Assembly: GCA_000405225.1 (NCBI GenBank)
Contig: ASMP01000001.1
Location: 892 to 64,891, forward strand
Direction of reading: 5' to 3'
Source of the DNA: Nanoarchaeota archaeon SCGC AAA011-D5
GTDB lineage: Archaea > Nanobdellota > Nanobdellia > Pacearchaeales > GW2011-AR1
DNA length: 64,000 bases
Part shown: positions 17,752-33,951 of the stretch, piece after piece
Position numbering within the stretch: position 1 is the stretch's first letter
How the letters are laid out: every line of letters starts with the position of its first letter
The notes under the pieces: generated by a model
Told to the model about the DNA's origin: nothing
What the model saw: the letters and a program-made list of their open reading frames with translations, nothing else
Database searches by the model: none
Position numbers and translations under genes: made by a program

Positions 17752-18654
17752 CTACAGGGTATATAATTTATTAAGAAGTCCTGATCTTGAGGGGTGTCTC
17801 AATTTTCTTAGGGCTTTTGCTTCTATCTGTTTAATTCGTTCTCTTGTACATTCGAAGCTAGTACCAACTTCTGCTAGTGTATGCTGACTGCCGTCGTCAA
17901 GACCAAACCTCATTCTAACAACTTTTTCCTCTCTTGGTGCAAGAGTCTCTAAAACTTTTTTAATTTGATCTGAAAATTCTGCGTTGAATCTTTCTTTGCG
18001 CTGCGTTAAATATTCTCGAACTCCATTATCCTCCAATAGTAAGAAACCGTCTGCTAACCTTTTGTAGACGTCTAGTTCAACTCTACGAAAGGCTCTATTA
18101 AATGCTTTTTCCGCAGTTCCTACTGCTCGCCTTGTTCCCATTCTATCGTAAGTTTCTCTCAGACTTTTATACAGCATGGGCAATATAATATCTTCAGTTT
18201 CTGGTAATCTCGTTTTCTCCCCAAATACTGCTCTGAGAAGCCTTTCTGCAGGTGATAGTTCATCTGGTTGACTGTAACTGAATATGCGACCAAGTCCCGT
18301 GTCAGTATAAATGAGCTTGTTTATCCTAGGTTTGAAAATATCTTCATCTACAGCTTCGTAGACTGTTTTTTCCCCTTCTTTGTCAATCAAATTAACATTT
18401 GGAAGACCTTCTGCTTGTCCTAGAGTTGCTAAATATAAATGTATGGCATTTCTATACCTATTACTCAATTTTAATGCTTCTCTGTAAAATTCTACAAGAG
18501 GATCTTTCCATTCTGGAGAACGCTTCCTAACAATTAGTAGTGCCGTCGGCTCTTTAACACCCCACTTCTTCTGAATGTATTTAGAACTAACATGACTCAA
18601 GTAGCTTAGTGCAACATCTCTCTCTTGTACTTCTGTCAGTCTGCGTTTCGACAT
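17752..18654 (-). CDS. protein with C-terminal bacterial sigma-70 region 4 (RpoD-like) domain and unrecognised N-terminal ~230 aa
   Basis: C-terminus [54 protein letters not shown] is nearly collinear with RpoD regions 4.1-4.2. Start chosen at ATG 18654 (MSKRR), preceded by GGAGTGAT 4 nt upstream; the ORF track extends to 18687. Confidence 0.8.
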
Positions 18655-18686
18655 TATTATCACTCCATATTCAAAGAAAAGAAGCA

Positions 18687-18694
18687 TTTATAAA
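18687..18694 (-). promoter_or_regulatory. TATA-box-like TTTATAAA upstream of the sigma-4 domain gene
   Basis: Palindromic TTTATAAA 33-40 nt upstream of ATG 18654, followed by the Shine-Dalgarno-like GGAGTGAT (18659-18666). Confidence 0.35.
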
Positions 18695-21957: not shown

Positions 21958-23823
21958 ATGCTTGAAAAGAGGGGCAAAAGAGGGACTCTGCCCATGGTGA
22001 GACAGATTAGAGGTCAGCTGAGCATTTTTATAATAATCGCGATTGTTGTCGTTGCCCTGATTTTTGGATACTTTTTTTTGAGGGGAACTATTTCTGTGCG
22101 CGGAATACCTGGAAGCATACAACCTGCATATACTGGTTTTTTGTCATGTCTGGAAGAGGACACGAACTCAGGAATATCTGTCTTGGAGAGCCAGGGGGGA
22201 TATATAGATCTCCCTGAGTTTGAGCCAGGCTCTGAATATATGCCTTTTTCATCACAACTGAATTTTGCAGGAAGTCCTGTTCCTTATTGGTATTATGTCT
22301 CGGGAAACAATATCCAGAAGGAGCAAGTTCCCACAAAAGGCGACATGGAAGACCAGCTTGAAAGTTTTATAGAAGAAAGGCTGAGAGACTGTAACCTGAG
22401 AAGTTACCATGATGAAGGGTTTGCAATCAGCATGCCAGATAAACCAAAGGCAGATGTGAACATAAAAGATGGTGAAGTGGAAGTGAATCTGAAACTGGAT
22501 CTTACAATAGAAAAAGAAAATGATACGGCATTGATAAGAAACCACAAAATATCGCAGCCGTCAAAACTCGGAAAGCTTTACGATTCTGCAAAAACAGTCT
22601 ATGACGAAGAACAGAAAAATCTTTTTTTAGAAAGATATGCTATTGACATCTTAAGGCTGTATGCTCCTGTAGATGGAGTAGAGATTACATGCGCTCCCCT
22701 TGTGTGGGATGCCGAAGAGGTTTTTGATGGCTTACAGGAAGCTATAGAAATAAATACTGCCGCACTAAAAAACAAAGGAAGCCGGGAAGATTATTTTGCA
22801 TTGAATTTCCCGGTAGATGAAGAAGTTCGTTTTTTGAATTCTAAAGACTGGCCAAACGGCTTTGAGATTTCTCCCGCAGACGGCAGGATTTTAATTTCCA
22901 GCCCTGTTGGAAATCAGCCAGGAATAGGATCTCTTGGATTTTGCTATGTTCCTTACCATTTCGTTTATAACATGAGATATCCTGTAATGATTCAAGCTTA
23001 TGATGGAGAGGAGATTTTCCAGTTCCCTGTTGCAGTTGTCATACAGGGAAACAATCCGCGGGAGTTCCTTAACGCTAGTGCTTCTGAAGATATTGTTCCA
23101 GAGCTCTGCAAATATAAAAATACAGAAGTCCAGATAAACACCTATGACACTTCTTTAAGGCCAGTGGATGCACAAATTTCCTACGAATGTTTCGGAAATA
23201 AGTGTGATATTGGAACCACAGAATCTGGAAAAATGACAGAGAATTTCCCACAGTGTGTAAATGGGTTTGTTTCTGCAAAAGCCCCTGGCTTCAAGGATAC
23301 CAGGTACTTATTTTCGACAGTGCAGCCGGGTTCTTTAGACATAATTCTTGACAGAGTCTATGAAACAGATATTGAACTGCTGCTTGATGGAAAGCCTTAC
23401 ACAGGAGAGGCTGTGATTACCTTTTCATCGGGTTATGCAACAGAAACCATCATTTATCCTAACCAGAAAACAGTAAAACTCGGAGAAGGGCAACATGAAA
23501 TTCAGGTCCAGATATTTAGAAATTCTTCAATAACAATAGGAGCAACAACGAAAGAACAGTGTATTGAAGTCCCAAGAGGAATTTTAGGAGTTTTCGGTTT
23601 GACAGAGGAAAGGTGTTTTGATATTCAGATACCGGGACAGGTGATTTCAAATGCGCTTTCAGGCGGCGGAAAGCAATCTCTTTATGTTCTCGAGTCTGAA
23701 CTGATAAAGGGAAATGCGCTTGAGATAAATGCGAGAAGCCTTCCTATTCCCAAGACGATAGAACAGGTCCAGGATAACTATCAATTGTTTGAGCAAAATC
23801 CGCTGGAGGCTGAGTTTAAGTAA
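21958..23823 (+). CDS. membrane-anchored extracellular protein with class III (prepilin-like) signal-like N-terminus; function unknown
   Basis: 621-aa ORF; the internal Met at 21994 gives MVRQIRGQ-LSIFIIIAIVVVALIFGYFF; the rest is soluble and Cys-containing with no family recognised; 5 nt upstream of the giant gene. Confidence 0.6.
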   Translation: MLEKRGKRGTLPMVRQIRGQLSIFIIIAIVVVALIFGYFFLRGTISVRGIPGSIQPAYTGFLSCLEEDTNSGISVLESQGGYIDLPEFEPGSEYMPFSSQLNFAGSPVPYWYYVSGNNIQKEQVPTKGDMEDQLESFIEERLRDCNLRSYHDEGFAISMPDKPKADVNIKDGEVEVNLKLDLTIEKENDTALIRNHKISQPSKLGKLYDSAKTVYDEEQKNLFLERYAIDILRLYAPVDGVEITCAPLVWDAEEVFDGLQEAIEINTAALKNKGSREDYFALNFPVDEEVRFLNSKDWPNGFEISPADGRILISSPVGNQPGIGSLGFCYVPYHFVYNMRYPVMIQAYDGEEIFQFPVAVVIQGNNPREFLNASASEDIVPELCKYKNTEVQINTYDTSLRPVDAQISYECFGNKCDIGTTESGKMTENFPQCVNGFVSAKAPGFKDTRYLFSTVQPGSLDIILDRVYETDIELLLDGKPYTGEAVITFSSGYATETIIYPNQKTVKLGEGQHEIQVQIFRNSSITIGATTKEQCIEVPRGILGVFGLTEERCFDIQIPGQVISNALSGGGKQSLYVLESELIKGNALEINARSLPIPKTIEQVQDNYQLFEQNPLEAEFK

Positions 23824-23828
23824 ATAAA

Positions 23829-26800
23829 ATGCCAGAAGAAAAAAATATTTTGACGGGAAAAAAGTATATGTTAGTAAGAAAACGCGGTAAGTATCTTAAA
23901 AGAAATTCAGTTAAAAGCTTAATTAACATAAGATTTATCCTTTTAATATCTATTTTTTTGGCTTTAACATTATTTTTTGTTTCATCTTTACCCATAACAA
24001 CTGCAGCATCTTCTTATGTAAGGAGTTCTCCTGCATATACTTTTGGGCATCAAACAGCCCCTTTCATAGGAGGACAGCAGTTCCCTTTATTTGACAGGAG
24101 CCAATGCCAGGCAGGCCAGGATTTCATTCTTCAGGTTGATCCTTTAGGATGCACACCATCTGTTATCAGAAGCGACTTGCTGGAAGATCAGGAAGTCGTT
24201 GTTTTCTGTCCAATATCTGCAACACAGCTGAACCCTTTGATTAAAATCAAAGACATAGACTATATGATTATAACTCCAAAAGATCTTCCCCGCGAGGTTT
24301 TGACAGTTGGCTATTATCCTGCAAGGGCTGCACTTGGAAAATGGGATCCTGACATTAAAACCCCAATTCTTGGAAATATAGGATATGCAACAATTGTTCT
24401 TAGAAGACAGCCTAACGAGTCTGCTATGCCTGATTTTGTCCAAGGAAATCTGACGGCAAAGCTGGTTTATGACATAGACAATGCATTTGGAACAGGAAGA
24501 GCTGTCTATTACCTAAGGCAAATGAGTGACGAAGAATGGAACAGGGGTTATACTGCTTATGGCTTCTGGGATGGAAGAGGATATTTGCGATTAGAAGGAG
24601 CAGACAACACAGGAGCGACGATAGGAGTTTATTCTGACAGAGACCAGACAGGAAACGCAAGGCTTGGAGAAAAAACAAAAATAGCCAACCTTGATCTGGA
24701 AAAAGGAAAAACATCGAGAGAAGTATTTCTTCCAGGATTCAATTACTGCATGGGTGGAATTGAAGTAAAACTAGAAGATTTTGAAAATCCGGACACAAGG
24801 GCAAGGCTAAGAGTTGATTCTGAGGTTATTGAAATGAAAACAGGAGAGAAATTCCTGGAAAACAAGTGCCTTGTAAAAAGCATATCAAAGCAAGGAATAA
24901 ATCAGAAAGTCGAGGTCTCTTGCCAGGAAGACGAAAGAAGAAACCCTTTCCTCTTAAGAATAAGCCCTAAAGTCAGCCTTTCTATAAATGGGGAAGCTAA
25001 AGAATACGGTGCTGGAGATTTATTGTATGATGACAAAGATAATTCCTATTACTTGGGATTTGTGGGAAGCAGCGGACAAACAAACTCTCTGGGAGAAGTA
25101 TATATAAGAATTATTTCAATACCAAAATCCAGAGGAGGAATAAGAACGAGCTTAAGCGAAAGCGATCTTTCTTTTGTTGCCAGTTATGACAAAAAAGTTT
25201 CTGGAAAAAACACAAAAGGAAGCGTTATTGAGGAAACTAAAGAATTTTTTGAAGGCATTGTGGCACAATTATCGCTTGTAGAAAATAAATTCTTCCGGGG
25301 AGCAGACCTAAAGACATTGACATATTCTGATTCGGAAAAACAGATTTTTGGAAAAACCCTTTCCATAAAAGGATATTCCGGAGCACCAGATACAGACATT
25401 TCCCAGATGCCTAAAGAAGTCAGGGAAAATTATGAAAATGCGATGAAAGATTATCTAGCAATAAAAGAGAGCTTCTCGGGAGACAGGTATCCTCCAAATG
25501 ATATAAGGACTCTTGGGGAGCAGGCTCTTACAGAAACTATAAGGCTTGCAAAAAGTCTTGAGCAGAGAAGTACGATATTACAACTTTGCAGAGAATTTTC
25601 TGAAACTTACGGTTCAGCTCCGCCAGAAATATCAACGATATGCGATAATGGATATCTTTTATCAAACACACAGACTTCTGAAAGAAGCGTAGTTATCAAC
25701 GGAAAAACACATATACTTGCCTTTGAAGGAGTAAGGGAGCCAAGCTTTGATGAATTTGGTCTTGAGATTATTGTGGCTTCTTCTGAAGGGCCAGGGGAAT
25801 ATGACCTTTCAAAAGGCGAGAGGGTTTATATCAACAGCACATCTAATGAGTATATACAACTGATAAATCTGGAGGAAGATTCTGCAATTCTTGTTACAGG
25901 CCTTTTAGGAAGAAATATAAGAACATCACAAAGGCTGAAAATTGGAACCGAAGAAACATTTGAGAGCAGGTACAGCTTTAGAATAAAGGAAATACATCTT
26001 CAAAAAGTTGCAAAGGTTTCCCTAAATCCAAAAATTGATTATGCCAGGACAAATGCGACAATCAACTTCAAAATTGGAATAGAAAAAAGAGCAATACAAT
26101 TAAGCCCTGAAAAAACAAAGGAAAGAATACAAACCCTGAACAAAACCATTGAAAAATGGACAAAAATAAATGATGGTTTGGGAAAAGTCGTCAAGGCCGG
26201 AAAGGCAGCATGTCTTGCGACAGCAGGAGCTTTAACAATAAAGAACTTCTTCTCGAATCTTGGAGGAAAAGGAATTGCAAGGCAAACAGTGATGAAAGCT
26301 CCAGGCACAGGATGGTATGACAAGTGCCAGAAAGATGTAAAGGATGTCAAATACGAATCTGTGGAAGCCTGTCTTTTGGCAAATTCTGATTCAATAGAAT
26401 CCTCTGTCAATTCATATGCCGATGCAATGAAAAAACAGAATGATGAAATAAAAAAACTTGAAGAAGGAATTTCCGATACAAGATTCCTTGGAGAAAAGGT
26501 TGTTAATACAGATGCGCTTGCTCAAAAACTCATGAATGACCCTGCTTTTATATCAGATATAAATTCCTGCAAAAATGATATTCAGATAGTTGTTGGTGGA
26601 AAAACTATAAGCGCTGTTGATGTTTATCCCATTAATCCAAACACAACAACGATCAGCCAGGCAAGAGCTCTGCAGTTAAATTGCAGGCTTCTTTCTTCAA
26701 GTGATACTGATGTACAAGCAATAGCAAAAAGTAATGTTGAAAAAACCTTTGGAGAGATTTATTCAAACTCAAGAACAGAGGCAACAAGGCTGACCTTTAA

Positions 26801-29800
26801 CTCACAATATGGAATCTCCCCAATAGTTGGCTCTACAAAAAAGCTTAAAGAATTTCCTCTTACAGATGTAAAAACCTTTGGCCAGGTAAAAAGCAAATTC
26901 AGTGGTGCAACAATTTCTGATGATACATATGTAACTACTTTTATCGACCAGACAGATGGCAAACAATATCTTATCACATTGACAAATGAATATGTTGTAA
27001 GCCAGACTTATCTCATAGGATCTGGCGGTGTTCTTAGTGTTGCAAATTCAAACAATGTAAACCATCTGGGAATAGGATTTAAAAAATACGATTCAGCAAC
27101 TTACAGCAATACATACATAAGTCCCAAAGTTAGATATTATGAGACAGATCCTTATCAAGGATTCCCTTCTGTGGTTCCTTTTGATACAAAGAATGGATGG
27201 TATGCTGCAGTAAAATCCAATGTGCCTGCGCTTGGAGGACTGAAAGCTTACGATGATTCTGGCAGAGTTTCCAGTTTCTATGTCTGCAATGTCGGACCAA
27301 ATGGCAGAGAGGAAAATATTGGAGGAGATGATATCTGCAGAGGATTCTATCCTGGAGCACAGCAGCCTCCAGATTTTCCCGGCTTAACAGAGCAGGAATC
27401 AAGAACTAAGATGGAGCAGGCTCAGAGGGCAATACAGCAAGCCCAGAACGAATACAAGGATGGAGTTAAAGAAGTAACAATAACTGCCGGTGGTCAAAGT
27501 CAAAGAATTAAAGTTGGAGAGCCTGCGGCAAATATTCCAGGAATACAATGCGAAGACTTTATGTCTCCTTCTGATTGCAATATTATGTTCAATGTTTGCG
27601 ATCCTTTCGTCTGTCCTTCTAGCAGATGTGATCTTGGAGGAGCATATCCTGTCAAAGATGTCATACAATCGGGAATAGCTGGAAGCATTGCACTCTGCCT
27701 TCCAAACTGGCCGGAAATTAAAGTTCCTATCTGTGTTTCAGGAGTGCATGCAGGACTTGAAGGATACAAAAGTGTTCTTAGCTCTTACCAACAGTGTTTG
27801 CAAACCAGCCTAGATACAGGACAGACAGTTGGAATCTGCGATGAACTGAACAGCATTTACATGTGTGACTTTTTCTGGAGACAAGGACTTCCTTTGATAA
27901 AATATGCGATACCTAAGGTAGTGGGAAGCGTTCTCGGACAAAACGTTAGAGGAGGAGGAGAATATCTTGGAGTTGCAGATGCCGCGTCTAATGCACAGAA
28001 GTCAATAGATTATTTCAGCCAGTATTATGCCGCGAATTCTTTTGCAGCTTTCAAGGCAAGATCTTTGGAAAGTGTGGGAACAGATATCTGCAGGAACTGG
28101 GTTTCACTCACAGGGCCAAAGGGAAATCTTTTTGACGCTTTAATATCTCCGGATTCACCGCCGCAGTTTTATGGAAGATTTGAGGAAATTCCTTACACTA
28201 CTGCAACAAATCCACCTGCGTCTCAGTACAAAGTGTTCTATCATATTTATGCCGGAAAAGATCTGCCTGCTTATTATCAAGTATATCTTCGAGGAACAGG
28301 CGGTTCCTTTTACCAGGACACTGCATTCAGGCGCCCAGTCGCATCAGGATTCATAAAAACAGGAGATTTCAAATCAGAAACTATAGATTTCAATGCTCCG
28401 TCGGGATACAAAGAGCTGTGCATAGTCGTAAACAACCAAGAACAGTGCGGCTTTAAACAGGTAACAACTGATTTCGGAGTGAATTATCTCTCTGAAAAAT
28501 ATGTTCAACAGCAGGCTTCCCAGAAAGACATAAAGTCAGAAGCAGAATGCGTTTCCGGAAATCCTAGCGCTTTCAGTTTCCTGAATCCCAATCTGCAGGC
28601 AGGTGCAGAAGAGGCATTGAATCCAGCAATATACAATAGAGGAATAACAAGAGTTTGCTCTACAGAGAATCCCGGAAAAACCAGTGACCCTCTGATGAAT
28701 ACGAAAAATCAGAGATGGAAAGATGTTGGAAACTGCGGGAGTGCAAACTTGAAGTGCTGGCTTGATACGGACAGTGTTAATAAGGTTATCAAAAATGCAA
28801 ATATACTGAACGAGACACTTGGAGTAATTGGAGATAGAGAAAAGCAAATCATAGATGCGTTGACGAAAGAAGGAAAGTACCTTGATAATTTTGATTCTTT
28901 CCAGAAAGAACTGGAAGGTCTTCAAGATTCAGAAATTATTTCGAAGATAAATGAAAACATCGGCAGGGTTTACAGAAACAACCAGAAAGGTTACCTTTAT
29001 TTTAAAAGAGGAAATGCCTATGGAAATCAGGCTCGTTTAACATACAGAATTCTCCTAGACACACAGAACTTACCTATAACACAAAGAGATTCAGAACCTT
29101 TAAATCCTATAGAAGAGCCAACAGAAACTCCTGAACAACCAAAAACAGGAGAAGAACCAACAGAAGCAGCAAGATGTGAAAAAGAATGTGGAGTTGTTTG
29201 TAGTAAGACAGAATGTGAATCTTTAGGATGTACTTTTGTTCCAGATCCAGTATTTAACAAAATATTTCCTCTTATTTTTAATAACTGTATACCAAAAGAA
29301 CAACCAACAGAACCAACGACAGAAGCAATAACACAATTCAAGAAGACCTTGGGAGAAAAGATAATCAAACTTGCGAAAGAGAAAGAACAGGAAAGAACAG
29401 ATCCCGACTACTCTACAGTACAAGCAGACACTGGAGCAAAATCTTTTGAATGCCTGGCTTTGCAGGTTGCTTTGATAGAAAGTAGCATTAGGCAATGTAA
29501 GAAAACACCCGCAAATGGAAACAACCCTCTTTACTGTGAGGGAGATAGCAGTGAAACAATCTCTGGTGATGCCTTTAAAACTGGTGGAGATTCTGGAAGC
29601 AGAGGAATCATGCAGATAAATACAGCATTTAAGAGGAAAGACAATGGTCAAAGTGTAGGACATTGTGGGAGTTACGATCTTTCATCCAACCGTGAAGAAT
29701 GCAGGACACAACTTTCATATTTTGAGACTAATGTGAATACTGGACTTAATCTTTTAATTGAAGGATATGATAAAGATGAAAAAAGCTTTGATTGTAATGG

Positions 29801-30548
29801 AAAGAAATATTCAGGATGGGCTAGAGCCTTAAGAAATTATAATGGTTGGGGATGTACAGGGAATACCAATTATGTAGAGAATGTTATATCTGCAAGAGAT
29901 GATGTTGCAAGACTTTTTCCAGAAGTTTGTGGGGAAACCAAGGAGGTATCTGTATCTGTCTCTCCCGTTACTTATTCAAAGGCAGAACTTATGGGGAGAA
30001 GTTCTACTATAAAAGGATTAACATCTGAAACTATTAAGGCCTTTTTTTCTATGAAAGCCGCAGCTGAAACAGATGGATTTATTCTAAATGCAGTATCTGG
30101 ATATAGAACTTTCAACAGGCAATTAGATATATGGAATGATAAATTTGCATCGTTTAGTGGCACAGATCAAGAAAAGGCAACAAAAACGGCTGAGTTTTCT
30201 GCTGTTCCAGGAATGTCCCGCCACCATTGGGGAACAGAAATAGACATAAATTCAGTTGATCCTTCTTACTGGCAGAATAATGTGGCCTTATATGAATGGC
30301 TTGTTTCAAATGCTCCAACTTATGGATTTTGCCAGTCCTATGATGAAGATAGAGGTGTAGTCAAAACAGAAAAATGGCATTGGAGTTACAAACCAATATC
30401 AAAACAGCTAACACAGCAATATTCCGATACAATAATTGCACAGGACATAACCGGTTTAGGTATTTCTGGAGAAACTACAATAATCTCTAACTTTGACTTC
30501 TACAAAAGAGGTTCTATCAGCGACATAAACCCCGATTGTTTATCTTAA
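23829..30548 (+). CDS. giant (2,239 aa) membrane-anchored surface protein with C-terminal lytic transglycosylase (SLT/GH23) and VanY/M15B peptidase domains
   Basis: Uninterrupted 6.7-kb ORF with N-terminal anchor IRFILLISIFLALTLFFVSS. SLT motifs: ALQVALIESS, RGIMQIN, ALRNYNGWG. M15B motifs: SGYRTFNRQ, SRHHWGTEIDIN, EKWHWSY. Confidence 0.85.
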   Translation: MPEEKNILTGKKYMLVRKRGKYLKRNSVKSLINIRFILLISIFLALTLFFVSSLPITTAASSYVRSSPAYTFGHQTAPFIGGQQFPLFDRSQCQAGQDFILQVDPLGCTPSVIRSDLLEDQEVVVFCPISATQLNPLIKIKDIDYMIITPKDLPREVLTVGYYPARAALGKWDPDIKTPILGNIGYATIVLRRQPNESAMPDFVQGNLTAKLVYDIDNAFGTGRAVYYLRQMSDEEWNRGYTAYGFWDGRGYLRLEGADNTGATIGVYSDRDQTGNARLGEKTKIANLDLEKGKTSREVFLPGFNYCMGGIEVKLEDFENPDTRARLRVDSEVIEMKTGEKFLENKCLVKSISKQGINQKVEVSCQEDERRNPFLLRISPKVSLSINGEAKEYGAGDLLYDDKDNSYYLGFVGSSGQTNSLGEVYIRIISIPKSRGGIRTSLSESDLSFVASYDKKVSGKNTKGSVIEETKEFFEGIVAQLSLVENKFFRGADLKTLTYSDSEKQIFGKTLSIKGYSGAPDTDISQMPKEVRENYENAMKDYLAIKESFSGDRYPPNDIRTLGEQALTETIRLAKSLEQRSTILQLCREFSETYGSAPPEISTICDNGYLLSNTQTSERSVVINGKTHILAFEGVREPSFDEFGLEIIVASSEGPGEYDLSKGERVYINSTSNEYIQLINLEEDSAILVTGLLGRNIRTSQRLKIGTEETFESRYSFRIKEIHLQKVAKVSLNPKIDYARTNATINFKIGIEKRAIQLSPEKTKERIQTLNKTIEKWTKINDGLGKVVKAGKAACLATAGALTIKNFFSNLGGKGIARQTVMKAPGTGWYDKCQKDVKDVKYESVEACLLANSDSIESSVNSYADAMKKQNDEIKKLEEGISDTRFLGEKVVNTDALAQKLMNDPAFISDINSCKNDIQIVVGGKTISAVDVYPINPNTTTISQARALQLNCRLLSSSDTDVQAIAKSNVEKTFGEIYSNSRTEATRLTFNSQYGISPIVGSTKKLKEFPLTDVKTFGQVKSKFSGATISDDTYVTTFIDQTDGKQYLITLTNEYVVSQTYLIGSGGVLSVANSNNVNHLGIGFKKYDSATYSNTYISPKVRYYETDPYQGFPSVVPFDTKNGWYAAVKSNVPALGGLKAYDDSGRVSSFYVCNVGPNGREENIGGDDICRGFYPGAQQPPDFPGLTEQESRTKMEQAQRAIQQAQNEYKDGVKEVTITAGGQSQRIKVGEPAANIPGIQCEDFMSPSDCNIMFNVCDPFVCPSSRCDLGGAYPVKDVIQSGIAGSIALCLPNWPEIKVPICVSGVHAGLEGYKSVLSSYQQCLQTSLDTGQTVGICDELNSIYMCDFFWRQGLPLIKYAIPKVVGSVLGQNVRGGGEYLGVADAASNAQKSIDYFSQYYAANSFAAFKARSLESVGTDICRNWVSLTGPKGNLFDALISPDSPPQFYGRFEEIPYTTATNPPASQYKVFYHIYAGKDLPAYYQVYLRGTGGSFYQDTAFRRPVASGFIKTGDFKSETIDFNAPSGYKELCIVVNNQEQCGFKQVTTDFGVNYLSEKYVQQQASQKDIKSEAECVSGNPSAFSFLNPNLQAGAEEALNPAIYNRGITRVCSTENPGKTSDPLMNTKNQRWKDVGNCGSANLKCWLDTDSVNKVIKNANILNETLGVIGDREKQIIDALTKEGKYLDNFDSFQKELEGLQDSEIISKINENIGRVYRNNQKGYLYFKRGNAYGNQARLTYRILLDTQNLPITQRDSEPLNPIEEPTETPEQPKTGEEPTEAARCEKECGVVCSKTECESLGCTFVPDPVFNKIFPLIFNNCIPKEQPTEPTTEAITQFKKTLGEKIIKLAKEKEQERTDPDYSTVQADTGAKSFECLALQVALIESSIRQCKKTPANGNNPLYCEGDSSETISGDAFKTGGDSGSRGIMQINTAFKRKDNGQSVGHCGSYDLSSNREECRTQLSYFETNVNTGLNLLIEGYDKDEKSFDCNGKKYSGWARALRNYNGWGCTGNTNYVENVISARDDVARLFPEVCGETKEVSVSVSPVTYSKAELMGRSSTIKGLTSETIKAFFSMKAAAETDGFILNAVSGYRTFNRQLDIWNDKFASFSGTDQEKATKTAEFSAVPGMSRHHWGTEIDINSVDPSYWQNNVALYEWLVSNAPTYGFCQSYDEDRGVVKTEKWHWSYKPISKQLTQQYSDTIIAQDITGLGISGETTIISNFDFYKRGSISDINPDCLS

Positions 30549-30559
30549 ATAGAAATGTA

Positions 30560-30643
30560 TGCGGAGACTAGGATTCGAACCTAGGTAAGCACTAAGCTAA
30601 CAGGTCCTAAGCCTGTCCCGTTTGACCACTCCGGCATCTCCGC
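30560..30643 (-). tRNA. tRNA-Leu (anticodon UAG)
   Basis: Class II tRNA: acceptor GCGGAGA/TCTCCGC, anticodon stem ACAGG/CCTGT with loop CTTAGGA, long variable arm, T-arm CTAGG-TTCGAAT-CCTAG. Confidence 0.9.
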
Positions 30644-31193: not shown

Positions 31194-32123
31194 TTATTTC
31201 TCCTTTGCTCTTGCCTCGCTTTCTTTTTGCTTGATTTTTTCTTCAAGGTCAAGCCTTTCTATAAGTTCTTTATAACGGTTTCTTATCGTTACTTCTGTTA
31301 TTCCTGCTATGTCTGCAACCTCTCTCTGAGTTTTTTTCTCATCGTTTATAAGGGCAGCGACATAAAGAGCAGCTGCGGCTATGCCCGCTGGACCGCGCCC
31401 TGAAGTAAGTTCAACTTCCTCTGCCCTTTTCAGGACTTTGAGGGCGTCATTCTGGGTTTTTGGCGAGAGTTTCAGAACAGAAGAAAATCTGGAGACGTAG
31501 TCTTTTGGCGAGCTTTGAGTGACCTTTATTCCGAGTTTTCTTATTATGAATCTGTAAGTTCTTCCTATTTCTTTTCTTTCAACATCAGAAGCCGTAGCCA
31601 TTTCATCAAGAGTTCTTGGTATATTATAACTTCTGCAGGCAGCATATAAACAGGCAGCTATCACAGATTCCATAGAACGGCCACGAACCAAGCCTCTTTG
31701 GAGAACATAATTGTAAATCCGAGCCGCATCGTCTCTTATGACATTTGGCAGATTGAGATAAGATGCGATAACCCTTAATTCAGCCATTGCAAGCCTGAGA
31801 TTTCTTTCTATACTCGTTGAAACACGCTCCTGCCATTTCTTAAGTCTCAAGAATTTCCTGGTTTGCTTTGGTTCCAACCTGTAGATATCAGATATCTCTC
31901 CTACGTTCGTTGTGAGTCCTTTATCAAACTTCTGAATGCTGGTTGGCGCACCTCCCCTGCCTTTTTTTTCATTTTTGTCAAATTTCCCTTGCATGTCCAC
32001 TCCGGTGTCCACCATTTTTTCCTCAATCACCAAGCCGCAGTCATTACAGATGATTTCCCCTAAATGCGGATCATAAGTGAGATTAATACCCCCGCATTCC
32101 GGACATTTTTTTATGAAAGCCAT
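31194..32123 (-). CDS. tfb: transcription initiation factor TFB (TFIIB homologue)
   Basis: N-terminal zinc ribbon CPECGG...CNDCGLV, B-finger/linker, two cyclin-fold repeats (RVIASYLNLP..., ALKVLKRAEE...GRGPAGIAAAALY), C-terminal HTH ITEVTIRNRYKEL. Confidence 0.95.
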   Translation of the reverse strand: MAFIKKCPECGGINLTYDPHLGEIICNDCGLVIEEKMVDTGVDMQGKFDKNEKKGRGGAPTSIQKFDKGLTTNVGEISDIYRLEPKQTRKFLRLKKWQERVSTSIERNLRLAMAELRVIASYLNLPNVIRDDAARIYNYVLQRGLVRGRSMESVIAACLYAACRSYNIPRTLDEMATASDVERKEIGRTYRFIIRKLGIKVTQSSPKDYVSRFSSVLKLSPKTQNDALKVLKRAEEVELTSGRGPAGIAAAALYVAALINDEKKTQREVADIAGITEVTIRNRYKELIERLDLEEKIKQKESEARAKEK

Positions 32124-33048: not shown

Positions 33049-33951
33049 ATGGCTGAAAAGATAAAAATTACCTTCCTTGGAACCAGCGATTCTATTCCAA
33101 GTGCGAAACGGAATCATCCGGCATTTTTAATTACTTATCTTGGAGAAAATATCCTGGTTGACTGTGGCGAAGCCACCCAGAGACAATTCAGGAAAGCAGG
33201 ATTAAACCCTGGAAAGCTTACCAGGATTTTGATAACTCACTGGCATGCAGATCATATCCTTGGAATTCCCGGGCTCCTGAAAACACTTGCTCTCAGCGGA
33301 TACAACAAAACCCTCCACATCTATGGGCCCAGAGGAACAAGATTTCTGATGAAAGAATTACTGAAACTTTTTACTTTTAAGGAAGCATTCCCCATTGAAA
33401 TTAATGAAGTGTCAGGAAGATTTTTTGAGAATAAAGATTTCTATCTGGAAGCTGAAACAATGAGTCATGGAACTCCCTGCAATGCATATTCTTTTGTAAA
33501 AAAGGGACAGATAAAAATAGACAAACACGAACTTAAAAAACACGGCATCATGGAAGGACCTCATCTAAAAGGGCTCAAGAGCGGAAGACCTATCACTTAT
33601 AACGAAAAGAAATATCTCCCTAAAAATTTAACATTTACAGAAAAGGAGAGAAAAATTTCCTTCGTTTTAGATACCTCTTTAAATGAAAAAATAGCCAGAT
33701 TTGTCAAAAATTCAGATGTTTTCGTGTGCGAATCTTCTTATATGGACGAGTTGAGAGATCTTGCAAAGAGGCATTACCACTTAACTGCAAAACAGGCAGC
33801 TCAGGTGGCAAAAAATGCTAAAGTCGGAAAATTGTTCATGGTCCACATAAGCCAGAGATATGAAAAGAGTCTAGAAAAGATTTTAAATGAGGCAAAAAAA
33901 ATCTTTAAGAATTCGGTAATCCCTGAAGATTTTCATGTTGTCGAGGTTTGA
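33049..33951 (+). CDS. rnz: ribonuclease Z (tRNA 3-prime processing)
   Basis: Metallo-beta-lactamase motif ITHWHADHILG, FLGTSDSIPS start, C-terminal HIS; ~300 aa short-form RNase Z. Confidence 0.9.
   Translation: MAEKIKITFLGTSDSIPSAKRNHPAFLITYLGENILVDCGEATQRQFRKAGLNPGKLTRILITHWHADHILGIPGLLKTLALSGYNKTLHIYGPRGTRFLMKELLKLFTFKEAFPIEINEVSGRFFENKDFYLEAETMSHGTPCNAYSFVKKGQIKIDKHELKKHGIMEGPHLKGLKSGRPITYNEKKYLPKNLTFTEKERKISFVLDTSLNEKIARFVKNSDVFVCESSYMDELRDLAKRHYHLTAKQAAQVAKNAKVGKLFMVHISQRYEKSLEKILNEAKKIFKNSVIPEDFHVVEV

Follow-up and report, generated by a model that had tools for sequence, protein, structure and literature searches.

Whose cell wall would be cut by an archaeon that encodes two murein-type enzymes at the end of one giant protein? 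This question is raised by a gene of Nanoarchaeota archaeon SCGC AAA011-D5 (GenBank assembly GCA_000405225.1), which lies in a stretch of 64,000 nucleotides (contig ASMP01000001.1, positions 892 to 64,891 of the forward strand) that is referred to here as the window and whose own numbering is used throughout. An earlier note, made from the letters of this stretch, had described the C-terminal end of the 2,239-residue product as a soluble lytic transglycosylase (SLT) domain followed by a VanY-type M15B peptidase, and had proposed that the pair acts on the wall of a bacterium. All of the peptide strings quoted in that note were found at their positions, and the length was recovered as a single open reading frame (ORF). 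An exact match to the whole protein was sought in public assemblies and gave no record. We found that this giant archaeal protein is furnished at its C-terminus with two tandem enzymes of predicted murein type in which all catalytic residues are intact. Both domains are strongly conserved, which we read from the alignments as a sign of purifying selection.

Archaea lack murein, and pseudomurein contains neither MurNAc nor D-amino acids. To our knowledge, the type of genome from which the window comes is not known to make murein. Since the archaeon itself makes no murein, the target would be the peptidoglycan of a neighbouring bacterium, and in the reading that we favour the protein is probably an exported giant of the DPANN archaea with a bifunctional muralytic tip. 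As far as computation goes, the interpretation of the earlier note is supported. The giant gene is divided as follows.

23829..30548, plus strand: the giant gene, a single uninterrupted ORF of 2,239 codons plus the stop codon
23907..24011, plus strand: sole hydrophobic segment (residues 27-61; Kyte-Doolittle scan), preceded by a Lys/Arg-rich stretch
24012..29063, plus strand: conserved body whose fold has no known match (residues 62-1745; phmmer), colinear in about 50 representative giants
27429..29063, plus strand: Cys-rich core, the best-conserved part of the body (residues 1201-1745; phmmer E down to 1e-283)
29064..29375, plus strand: Pro/Glu/Thr-rich linker with a small Cys cluster (residues 1746-1849; from the translation, outside the core matches)
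29376..29936, plus strand: divergent GH23/SLT lytic-transglycosylase-like domain (residues 1850-2036; profiles, alignments and AlphaFold 2 model)
29478..29480, plus strand: codon of E1884, the predicted SLT catalytic glutamate (alignments; MltC register)
29937..30017, plus strand: inter-domain linker (residues 2037-2063), with pLDDT below 50 at residues 2038-2045 (model residues 204-211)
30018..30395, plus strand: predicted VanY/LdcB-type M15B (LAS) zinc peptidase (residues 2064-2189; Pfam, PDB alignments, Foldseek and conservation)
30396..30545, plus strand: C-terminal 50 residues beyond the peptidase core (translation)

The VanY/LdcB-type peptidase domain

Residues 2064-2189 are unambiguous in their predicted identity as a VanY/LdcB-type M15B zinc peptidase, as the earlier note had proposed. 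This region matches Pfam PF02557 over profile positions 4-131 of 132 (E=6.7e-30, 104 bits against a cutoff of 25), and the VanY-B and LdcB sequences of the PDB match it with E-values of 6e-13 to 3e-6. The motifs were located at residues 2090 (SGYRT, nucleotide 30096), 2130 (SRHHWG, nucleotide 30216), 2137 (EIDIN) and 2181 (EKWHW, nucleotide 30369). When aligned with VanY-B and LdcB, SGYRT falls on SGYRT, SRHHWGTEIDIN falls on SEHQLGLAVDIN and EKWHW falls on EPWHY. In the VanY-B register, the zinc ligands of the H-x6-D...H pattern are H2132, D2139 and H2184, the glutamate of the ExxH motif is E2181 and the arginine of the S-x-x-R motif is R2093. All of these residues, together with S2090, S2130 and G2135, were observed to be invariant in the 125 sequences of the alignment (the window protein and 124 homologues).

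The AlphaFold 2 model of the C-terminal module covers residues 1835-2239 with a mean pLDDT of 81, and its peptidase half (pLDDT 55-89) was matched by Foldseek to entries 5hnm, 5zhf, 4ox3, 4mph and 4oxd, which are structures of VanY-B, LdcB and VanXY (probability 1.0, E=4e-5 to 1e-3, target TM-scores 0.47-0.56). The specific NCBIfam models were found to lie far below their cutoffs (54.7 against 400 bits for vanY_BG, 40.5 against 275 bits for LdcB) and therefore the domain seems to be a generic M15B member which is an orthologue of neither. In addition, the VanY region is matched by the phage tape-measure family phrog_16823 (E=7e-11), and it was the only part of the giant protein that found a match in PHROGs. 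The domain thus shares with VanY-B and LdcB (MEROPS M15B, LAS) the Pfam family, the SxHxxGxAxD and ExxH motifs, the conserved arginine and the fold, and differs from them in being fused to an SLT domain, in occurring in an organism without murein of its own and in scoring below the NCBIfam cutoffs.

A divergent lytic-transglycosylase-like domain

The domain at residues ~1850-2036 is clearly, judging from profiles and alignments, a divergent member of the GH23/SLT group. Its motifs are LIESS at residue 1882 (nucleotide 29472), GIMQIN at 1926 (nucleotide 29604) and RNYNGWG at 2002 (nucleotide 29832), in which the motif residues are ES at 1884-1885, GIMQ at 1926-1929 and YNGW at 2004-2007. The family assignment of the earlier note stood in the comparisons among relatives, although a direct scan fails: the segment alone found no match in Pfam (PF01464) or NCBIfam even at E<=10. 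A profile of three sequences (the query and two close relatives) returned noise only from the PDB, and a word-index search for homologues of the segment gave two matches. An exhaustive HMMER search with the same three-sequence profile recovered 341 representative relatives, of which 50 reach E<=1e-30; many of the 341 are 2,000-2,400 residues long with the domain at the C-terminus.

These relatives connect the window's domain to the canonical family. Among 40 short relatives that were sampled, 21 matched PF01464, with a best E-value of 4e-19. Close relatives reached E=0.01-0.07 only, in the correct register, and distant relatives of the canonical type reached 1e-8 to 1e-15 with the same residues taking part in the profile match. 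Furthermore, an hhalign comparison between 81 sequences of the window's subfamily and 30 of the canonical-type group gave a probability of 99.93% and E=7.8e-36, with ES falling on ES. A family profile of 37 sequences matched MltC in the PDB (9vi7 at 3.1e-7 and 4c5f at 3.3e-6), followed by EtgA (1e-3), Slt70 (0.02), MltE (0.03) and then the goose- and hen-type lysozymes.

The best-conserved columns in the alignments were found to be the glutamate of ES, G-x-MQIN and Y-x-GW-x-x-ALR-x-YNGW. No variation was seen at E1884 or at the other motif residues (G, N, W and Y-N-G) among the 37 sequences of alignment A6, and across 176 segments their conservation is at least 90%. E1884 aligns with the glutamate of the TESS motif of MltC, which is replaced by glutamine in the variant MltC entry 4cfo and which we take to be the catalytic Glu217. 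Alignment has in this way confirmed both the catalytic glutamate and the His/Asp/His zinc ligands that were anticipated for the two domains. In the model, the SLT half is all-helical with pLDDT mostly above 90.

The features shared with the family 1 lytic transglycosylases of GH23 (MltC, Slt70, MltE/EmtA and EtgA) are the Glu-Ser pair, G-(L/I)-MQ and (A/N)-Y-N-G followed by Y-V, together with the alignment of the catalytic glutamate in the profile matches and the predicted all-helical fold. In contrast to the MltC type, the window's subfamily has a Cys-containing insertion of about 20 residues directly after ES as well as extra conserved cysteines, and the domain ends a giant archaeal protein instead of belonging to a periplasmic lipoprotein. 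The subfamily-specific insertion is the reason why Pfam and NCBIfam miss the domain.

Recurrence and ancestry of the tandem

The SLT-VanY tandem was also found at the C-terminus of a second protein of 994 residues (P0096, L082:4733-7717), whose body is unrelated and which shares 38% identity with the window protein over residues 1843-2239. In an alignment with the 124 homologues, the fused VanY domains group together in a single clade, whose sisters are P0096 and then a protein of 330 residues (P0152, L081:6001-6993). The latter is encoded by a separate VanY gene that follows ORFs of 1,112 residues (with fn3 repeats) and 828 residues, and the neighbourhoods of both of these genes were observed to hold mostly hypothetical proteins and fn3 repeats. 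The earlier suggestion of a bacterial-wall substrate is strengthened by the finding that the two enzymes address two different bonds and that their tandem recurs on an unrelated scaffold.

Apart from these, the VanY domain is most closely related to bacterial M15 peptidases that stand alone, in Patescibacteria and Bacteroidota (about 40-48% identity), and because of this the sequences indicate a bacterial ancestry of the module. Phage M15B endolysins, which were found by the fold search, are more distant. A donor of the VanY domain was sought among bacteria and phages; a bacterial origin is indicated, but its named relatives, all at about 40% identity, come from both Patescibacteria and Bacteroidota and point to no specific donor. 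It is probable that bacteria supplied the peptidase in a single acquisition, after which it travelled as a unit with the SLT domain.

Two records carry bacterial labels. The first is a protein on a contig of 1,665 nucleotides (P0008, MEK9207188.1) which is labelled 'Patescibacteria group bacterium' and whose VanY core is 83% identical to that of the window (66% over the aligned SLT and VanY domains). The second is a locus labelled 'bacterium' (L071, DAIQOR010000003.1) that carries the whole DPANN cassette described below. Both labels are probably binning or labelling errors in the public records.

The conserved body, its partner gene and variable C-terminal modules

The hydrophobic segment at residues 27-61 is the only one that a Kyte-Doolittle scan found in the whole protein, and Ala-Ala-Ser follows its hydrophobic core. 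From this translation the segment could serve as a signal peptide or could anchor the N-terminus in the membrane. No recognised sorting signal and no hydrophobic segment were found in the last 50 residues (translation and Kyte-Doolittle scan), and these residues are also conserved in the two closest tandem-bearing relatives (L001 and L044) and in P0008. The body found no match in Pfam, PHROGs or the PDB by phmmer. Its core (residues 1201-1745) was modelled by AlphaFold 2 with moderate confidence (pLDDT 71), and Foldseek with this model returned only generic Ig-like beta-sandwich matches and no functional assignment of the scaffold.

A scan for homologues of the body (residues 1201-1750, one genome per species) gave 180 related loci, of which 80 were kept (L001-L080). 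The kept loci are labelled Nanoarchaeota, Woesearchaeota, Pacearchaeota or 'archaeon', apart from the one labelled 'bacterium', and the closest body relatives are 82-86% identical. The giant gene is preceded by a partner gene.

21958..23823, plus strand: 621-residue partner gene with an N-terminal transmembrane segment (residues ~13-48), ending 5 nucleotides before the giant gene

This partner lies directly upstream of the giant gene in 67 of the 80 related loci, at 35-80% identity, and the two therefore constitute a conserved two-gene cassette. It found no match in Pfam, PHROGs or the PDB.

The C-terminal part that follows the core was observed to be variable. Among 76 post-core tails scanned with Pfam, 21 carry SLT and 3 carry VanY; trypsin-like and glucosaminidase domains occur in two tails each, and PT-HINT, matrixin and ankyrin in a single tail each. 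As an example, the tail of L005 carries PT-HINT (pretoxin-HINT) followed by about 300 further residues, while L036 has two SLT domains and L024 has an internal one. The SLT-VanY tandem on the giant scaffold was found only in the window and in two of the 80 loci (L001 and L044), which are the window's closest relatives. Three of the variable tails lie at the following positions.

L005:11654-14191: variable tail
L036:11615-16024: variable tail
L045:11744-13897: variable tail

A conserved N-terminal scaffold with variable C-terminal modules is the arrangement of polymorphic toxin and effector-display systems. By Pfam, no pre-toxin domain was found in the window protein, the only one being that of the homologue L005, and no cognate immunity-like gene or toxin cassette was seen downstream of the window gene, where only a tRNA-Leu gene and an ORF of 138 residues are present. 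Therefore, we do not class the giant protein as a polymorphic toxin. It is a tentative possibility that the two-gene cassette is a DPANN-specific apparatus for effector display, in which a conserved scaffold of about 1,750 residues and novel fold presents interchangeable 'warheads'. These may be SLT, SLT with VanY, serine proteases or metalloproteases, glucosaminidase and a pretoxin-HINT cassette. Such an apparatus would be functionally analogous to the polymorphic-toxin and contact-dependent systems of bacteria and evolutionarily unrelated to them.

Archaeal source and gene neighbourhood

By its gene content, the source of the window is a DPANN archaeon of the Woese-/Pacearchaeota group, because archaeal genes are present in the window and the relatives of the body come from Woese-, Pace- and Nanoarchaeota. 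A TFIIB/TFB gene is encoded at 31194-32123 on the minus strand, 650 nucleotides downstream of the giant gene (PF00382, E=1e-47). RadA/Rad51 is encoded at 752-1774, and SRP54, aIF2alpha and several aminoacyl-tRNA synthetases are also found within the window, with RadA and SRP54 lying upstream of the giant gene. The GC content is about 39% across the giant gene and 34-41% in the rest of the window, with no discontinuity. The archaeal encoding that the earlier note assumed is borne out, and a bacterial contig was rejected as its source on the grounds of the archaeal flanking genes, the even GC content and the DPANN labels of the body relatives.

The downstream tRNA gene is a tRNA-Leu(UAG) at 30560-30643 on the opposite (minus) strand, 12 nucleotides past the stop codon of the giant gene, and the ORF of 138 residues that comes next has no informative match. 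Eight tRNA genes are scattered over the window.

Several other genes in the window were noticed. An ORF of 311 residues (17752-18687, minus strand) carries a clear bacterial-type Sigma-70 region 4 domain on this archaeal chromosome (PF04545, E=1.5e-15). A second giant ORF of 1,820 residues (36890-42352, minus strand) has a match to the bacterial Ig-like Big_3_3 domain and, at its extreme C-terminus (residues 1787-1815), a short Sigma70_r4_2-like match with E=1e-6; it may encode another large surface protein. The product of 33049-33951 (plus strand) has a metallo-beta-lactamase fold and a weak, sub-threshold likeness to the anti-Pycsar Apyc1 family (25.7 bits, where the cutoff is 50), and it is probably an ordinary enzyme of that fold or an RNase Z-like enzyme.

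Relation to known systems

Phage tape-measure and virion-associated lysins and the conjugation hydrolases of Gram-positive bacteria (SLT plus peptidase of the PrgK/TraG type) are bifunctional and belong to wall-crossing machines. The giant protein resembles these in carrying a glycan-cleaving domain and a peptidase on a long extended carrier, which would open a wall locally and not globally. The likeness to the phage lysins extends to the match of the VanY region in PHROGs and to the M15B endolysins among the fold matches. Unlike these machines, it has a body without homology to them and a chromosomal, archaeal gene, and no secretion or tail genes are adjacent to it in the window.

The nearest published counterparts are the giant proteins of DPANN archaea. 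According to Castelle et al. 2021 (PMC8204110), who cite earlier notes from 2013 and 2015 (Castelle 2015, AR20), giant proteins with a murein-like lytic transglycosylase were proposed to bind and degrade bacterial walls. Predatory Woesearchaeota with large GH23 enzymes are proposed by Vigneron et al. 2022 (PMC9723730), and similar remarks occur in PMC10936187 and PMC11537232. The giant protein shares with family fam00969 of PMC8204110 the lineage, a size class of 2,000-3,000 residues, the possession of an SLT/GH23 domain and a role that has been proposed in the attack on bacterial walls. The description of that family (up to about 3,000 residues, extracellular, Woese-/Pacearchaeota, SLT) applies to the window protein, which is likened to it by description and not by sequence. 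What sets the window protein apart from the giants of these papers is the M15B VanY-type peptidase behind its SLT domain and the divergence of that SLT domain, whose subfamily escapes the standard models of Pfam and NCBIfam.

Strock et al. 2025 (PMC12352652) report that archaeal peptidoglycan hydrolases kill bacteria experimentally and that Nanoarchaeota are rich in such genes. Those hydrolases and the window protein have in common an archaeal origin, bacterial-type catalytic domains gained through transfer and domain shuffling, and the prominence of Nanoarchaeota. Their survey required a recognised cell-wall-binding domain, and the enzymes tested were M23 enzymes from haloarchaea. The window protein differs in having no recognised binding domain, in its pair of GH23 and M15B and in its giant scaffold, and would probably have been excluded from the survey by the binding-domain requirement.

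Our literature search found no paper that links Woesearchaeota to a D-Ala-D-Ala carboxypeptidase, and no description of the 621-residue partner or of the interchangeable C-terminal modules was found in the available portions of the literature on DPANN giants. The bacterial host or prey interpretation is, in our judgement, correct but already published for the DPANN giant family. What goes beyond the published accounts is the rare VanY fusion, the interchangeable C-terminal modules on a conserved body and the syntenic 621-residue partner.

Proposed function and alternatives

In the interpretation that we favour, the giant protein, which is encoded together with the membrane partner of 621 residues, would be exported through its N-terminal hydrophobic segment. 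Flexible linkers would join the body of about 1,750 residues to the muralytic module at their distal end. In this module, E1884 would serve as the acid/base of the GH23 domain in cutting the MurNAc-GlcNAc glycan, and the M15B zinc peptidase would process stem peptides that end in D-Ala. The module might thereby thin or open the bacterial wall locally at the site of attachment and release muropeptides and D-Ala. Murein appears to be much the most likely substrate of the tandem because the two enzymes attack different bonds of one polymer. We infer the export, anchoring, substrate, contact dependence and purpose (attachment, feeding or killing) from these features. The picture of a tether in the earlier note is likewise suggested by the one N-terminal hydrophobic segment and by Pro/Glu/Thr-rich linkers that are modelled with low confidence.

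A number of points weigh against this interpretation. With a broad SLT profile, SLT was found in 27 of the 80 body homologues and is missing from the other 53, so that murein cleavage cannot itself be what the scaffold is conserved for; wall cleavage would instead be a function of the exchangeable tip. In Foldseek with the two-domain query, the SLT half gave only marginal matches to the lysozyme fold (GH124 6g1i with E=0.2 and probability 0.92, the PRD1 transglycosylase with E=0.16, and goose- and hen-type lysozymes with E=2-7). No peptidoglycan-binding domain (LysM, SH3b or PG_binding) was found in the giant protein by Pfam. VanY/LdcB-type enzymes characteristically trim terminal D-Ala and do not break cross-links, and some GH23 enzymes act on chitin. 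We know of no bacterial host that has been demonstrated for Woese- or Pacearchaeota, and the activity of the giant protein, like that of its whole family, is a predicted one. Unless the specificity of the peptidase is endolysin-like, any 'wall opening' would depend chiefly on the domain that cleaves glycan.

Among the alternatives, it is conceivable, though rather unlikely, that the protein or a released C-terminal fragment of it scavenges, digesting free peptidoglycan debris or necromass and so providing an auxotrophic archaeon with amino sugars and D/L-amino acids, with neither contact nor a specific bacterial host. The nearest counterparts of the M15B domain are carboxypeptidases that free the terminal D-Ala, an activity that yields nutrients and is not lytic, and the Ala-Ala-Ser after the hydrophobic core would allow the N-terminal segment to be a cleaved signal peptide. 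Peptidoglycan alanine is also proposed as a resource for Pacearchaeota in PMC11537232. However, a conserved body of such size with a syntenic membrane partner would be a heavy burden on a minimal genome if the product were just a secreted digestive enzyme, and interchangeable modules that include pretoxin-HINT look more like the display of effectors. The same variety of modules, from SLT, with or without VanY, to trypsin-like, matrixin, glucosaminidase and PT-HINT domains, would also suit an antibacterial weapon, that is, a contact-dependent or secreted bacteriolytic effector which is directed against competitors and not hosts, comparable to polymorphic toxins or weaponised peptidoglycan hydrolases. 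The patchy distribution of the VanY fusion agrees with this, as does the killing of bacteria by archaeal peptidoglycan hydrolases reported in PMC12352652. We nevertheless regard a weapon as improbable, since no immunity-like or toxin-cassette arrangement follows the gene, PT-HINT belongs to a homologue and not to the giant protein itself, and ultra-small, symbiont-like archaea have little obvious need to kill competitors.

Less probable still is a substrate other than murein, or a role in binding only. The substrate might then be an archaeal host envelope of pseudomurein, a chitin-like glycan or the cell's own surface glycoproteins. The chitin-active members of GH23 would fit such a substrate, and so would the proposal, mentioned in PMC9723730, that Woesearchaeota are partners of methanogens; the missing peptidoglycan-binding domain could be held in favour of this reading as well. 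The pairing of GH23 with a D-Ala-specific LAS peptidase, however, makes sense only for murein, the building blocks that the two would attack are absent from pseudomurein, and the nearest VanY relatives are bacterial cell-wall enzymes. A binding-only role was rejected because the catalytic residues of the two enzymes are all intact and strongly conserved. Finally, the bacterial labels of P0008 and L071 would be expected if a bacterial or phage fragment had been mis-assembled into an archaeal contig. This artefact is effectively refuted by the archaeal genes on both sides, the continuous GC content, the lack of any PHROGs family that matches the body and the occurrence of both the body family and the partner gene across about 180 DPANN genomes.

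Implications

We know of no host that has been identified for Woese- and Pacearchaeota, to which a large part of archaeal diversity belongs, and there are few concrete clues that some of them live on bacteria; one of these is the presence, on their largest surface protein, of enzymes predicted to cut bacterial walls. The SLT-VanY locus itself adds little to the published idea and is a modest architectural variant. Two intact enzymes within about 400 residues nevertheless provide a clean construct that can be tested, and their specificity for bond and chemotype could narrow down the partner bacteria. In addition, a whole SLT subfamily is missed by standard annotation and therefore surveys based on Pfam or CAZy under-count genes of this kind.

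The more interesting lead is the scaffold and its conserved partner gene with swappable C-terminal modules. If the effector-display possibility is true, the type of warhead would report the envelope type of the host or prey of each archaeon, and the SLT-VanY version would mark lineages that exploit murein-walled bacteria.

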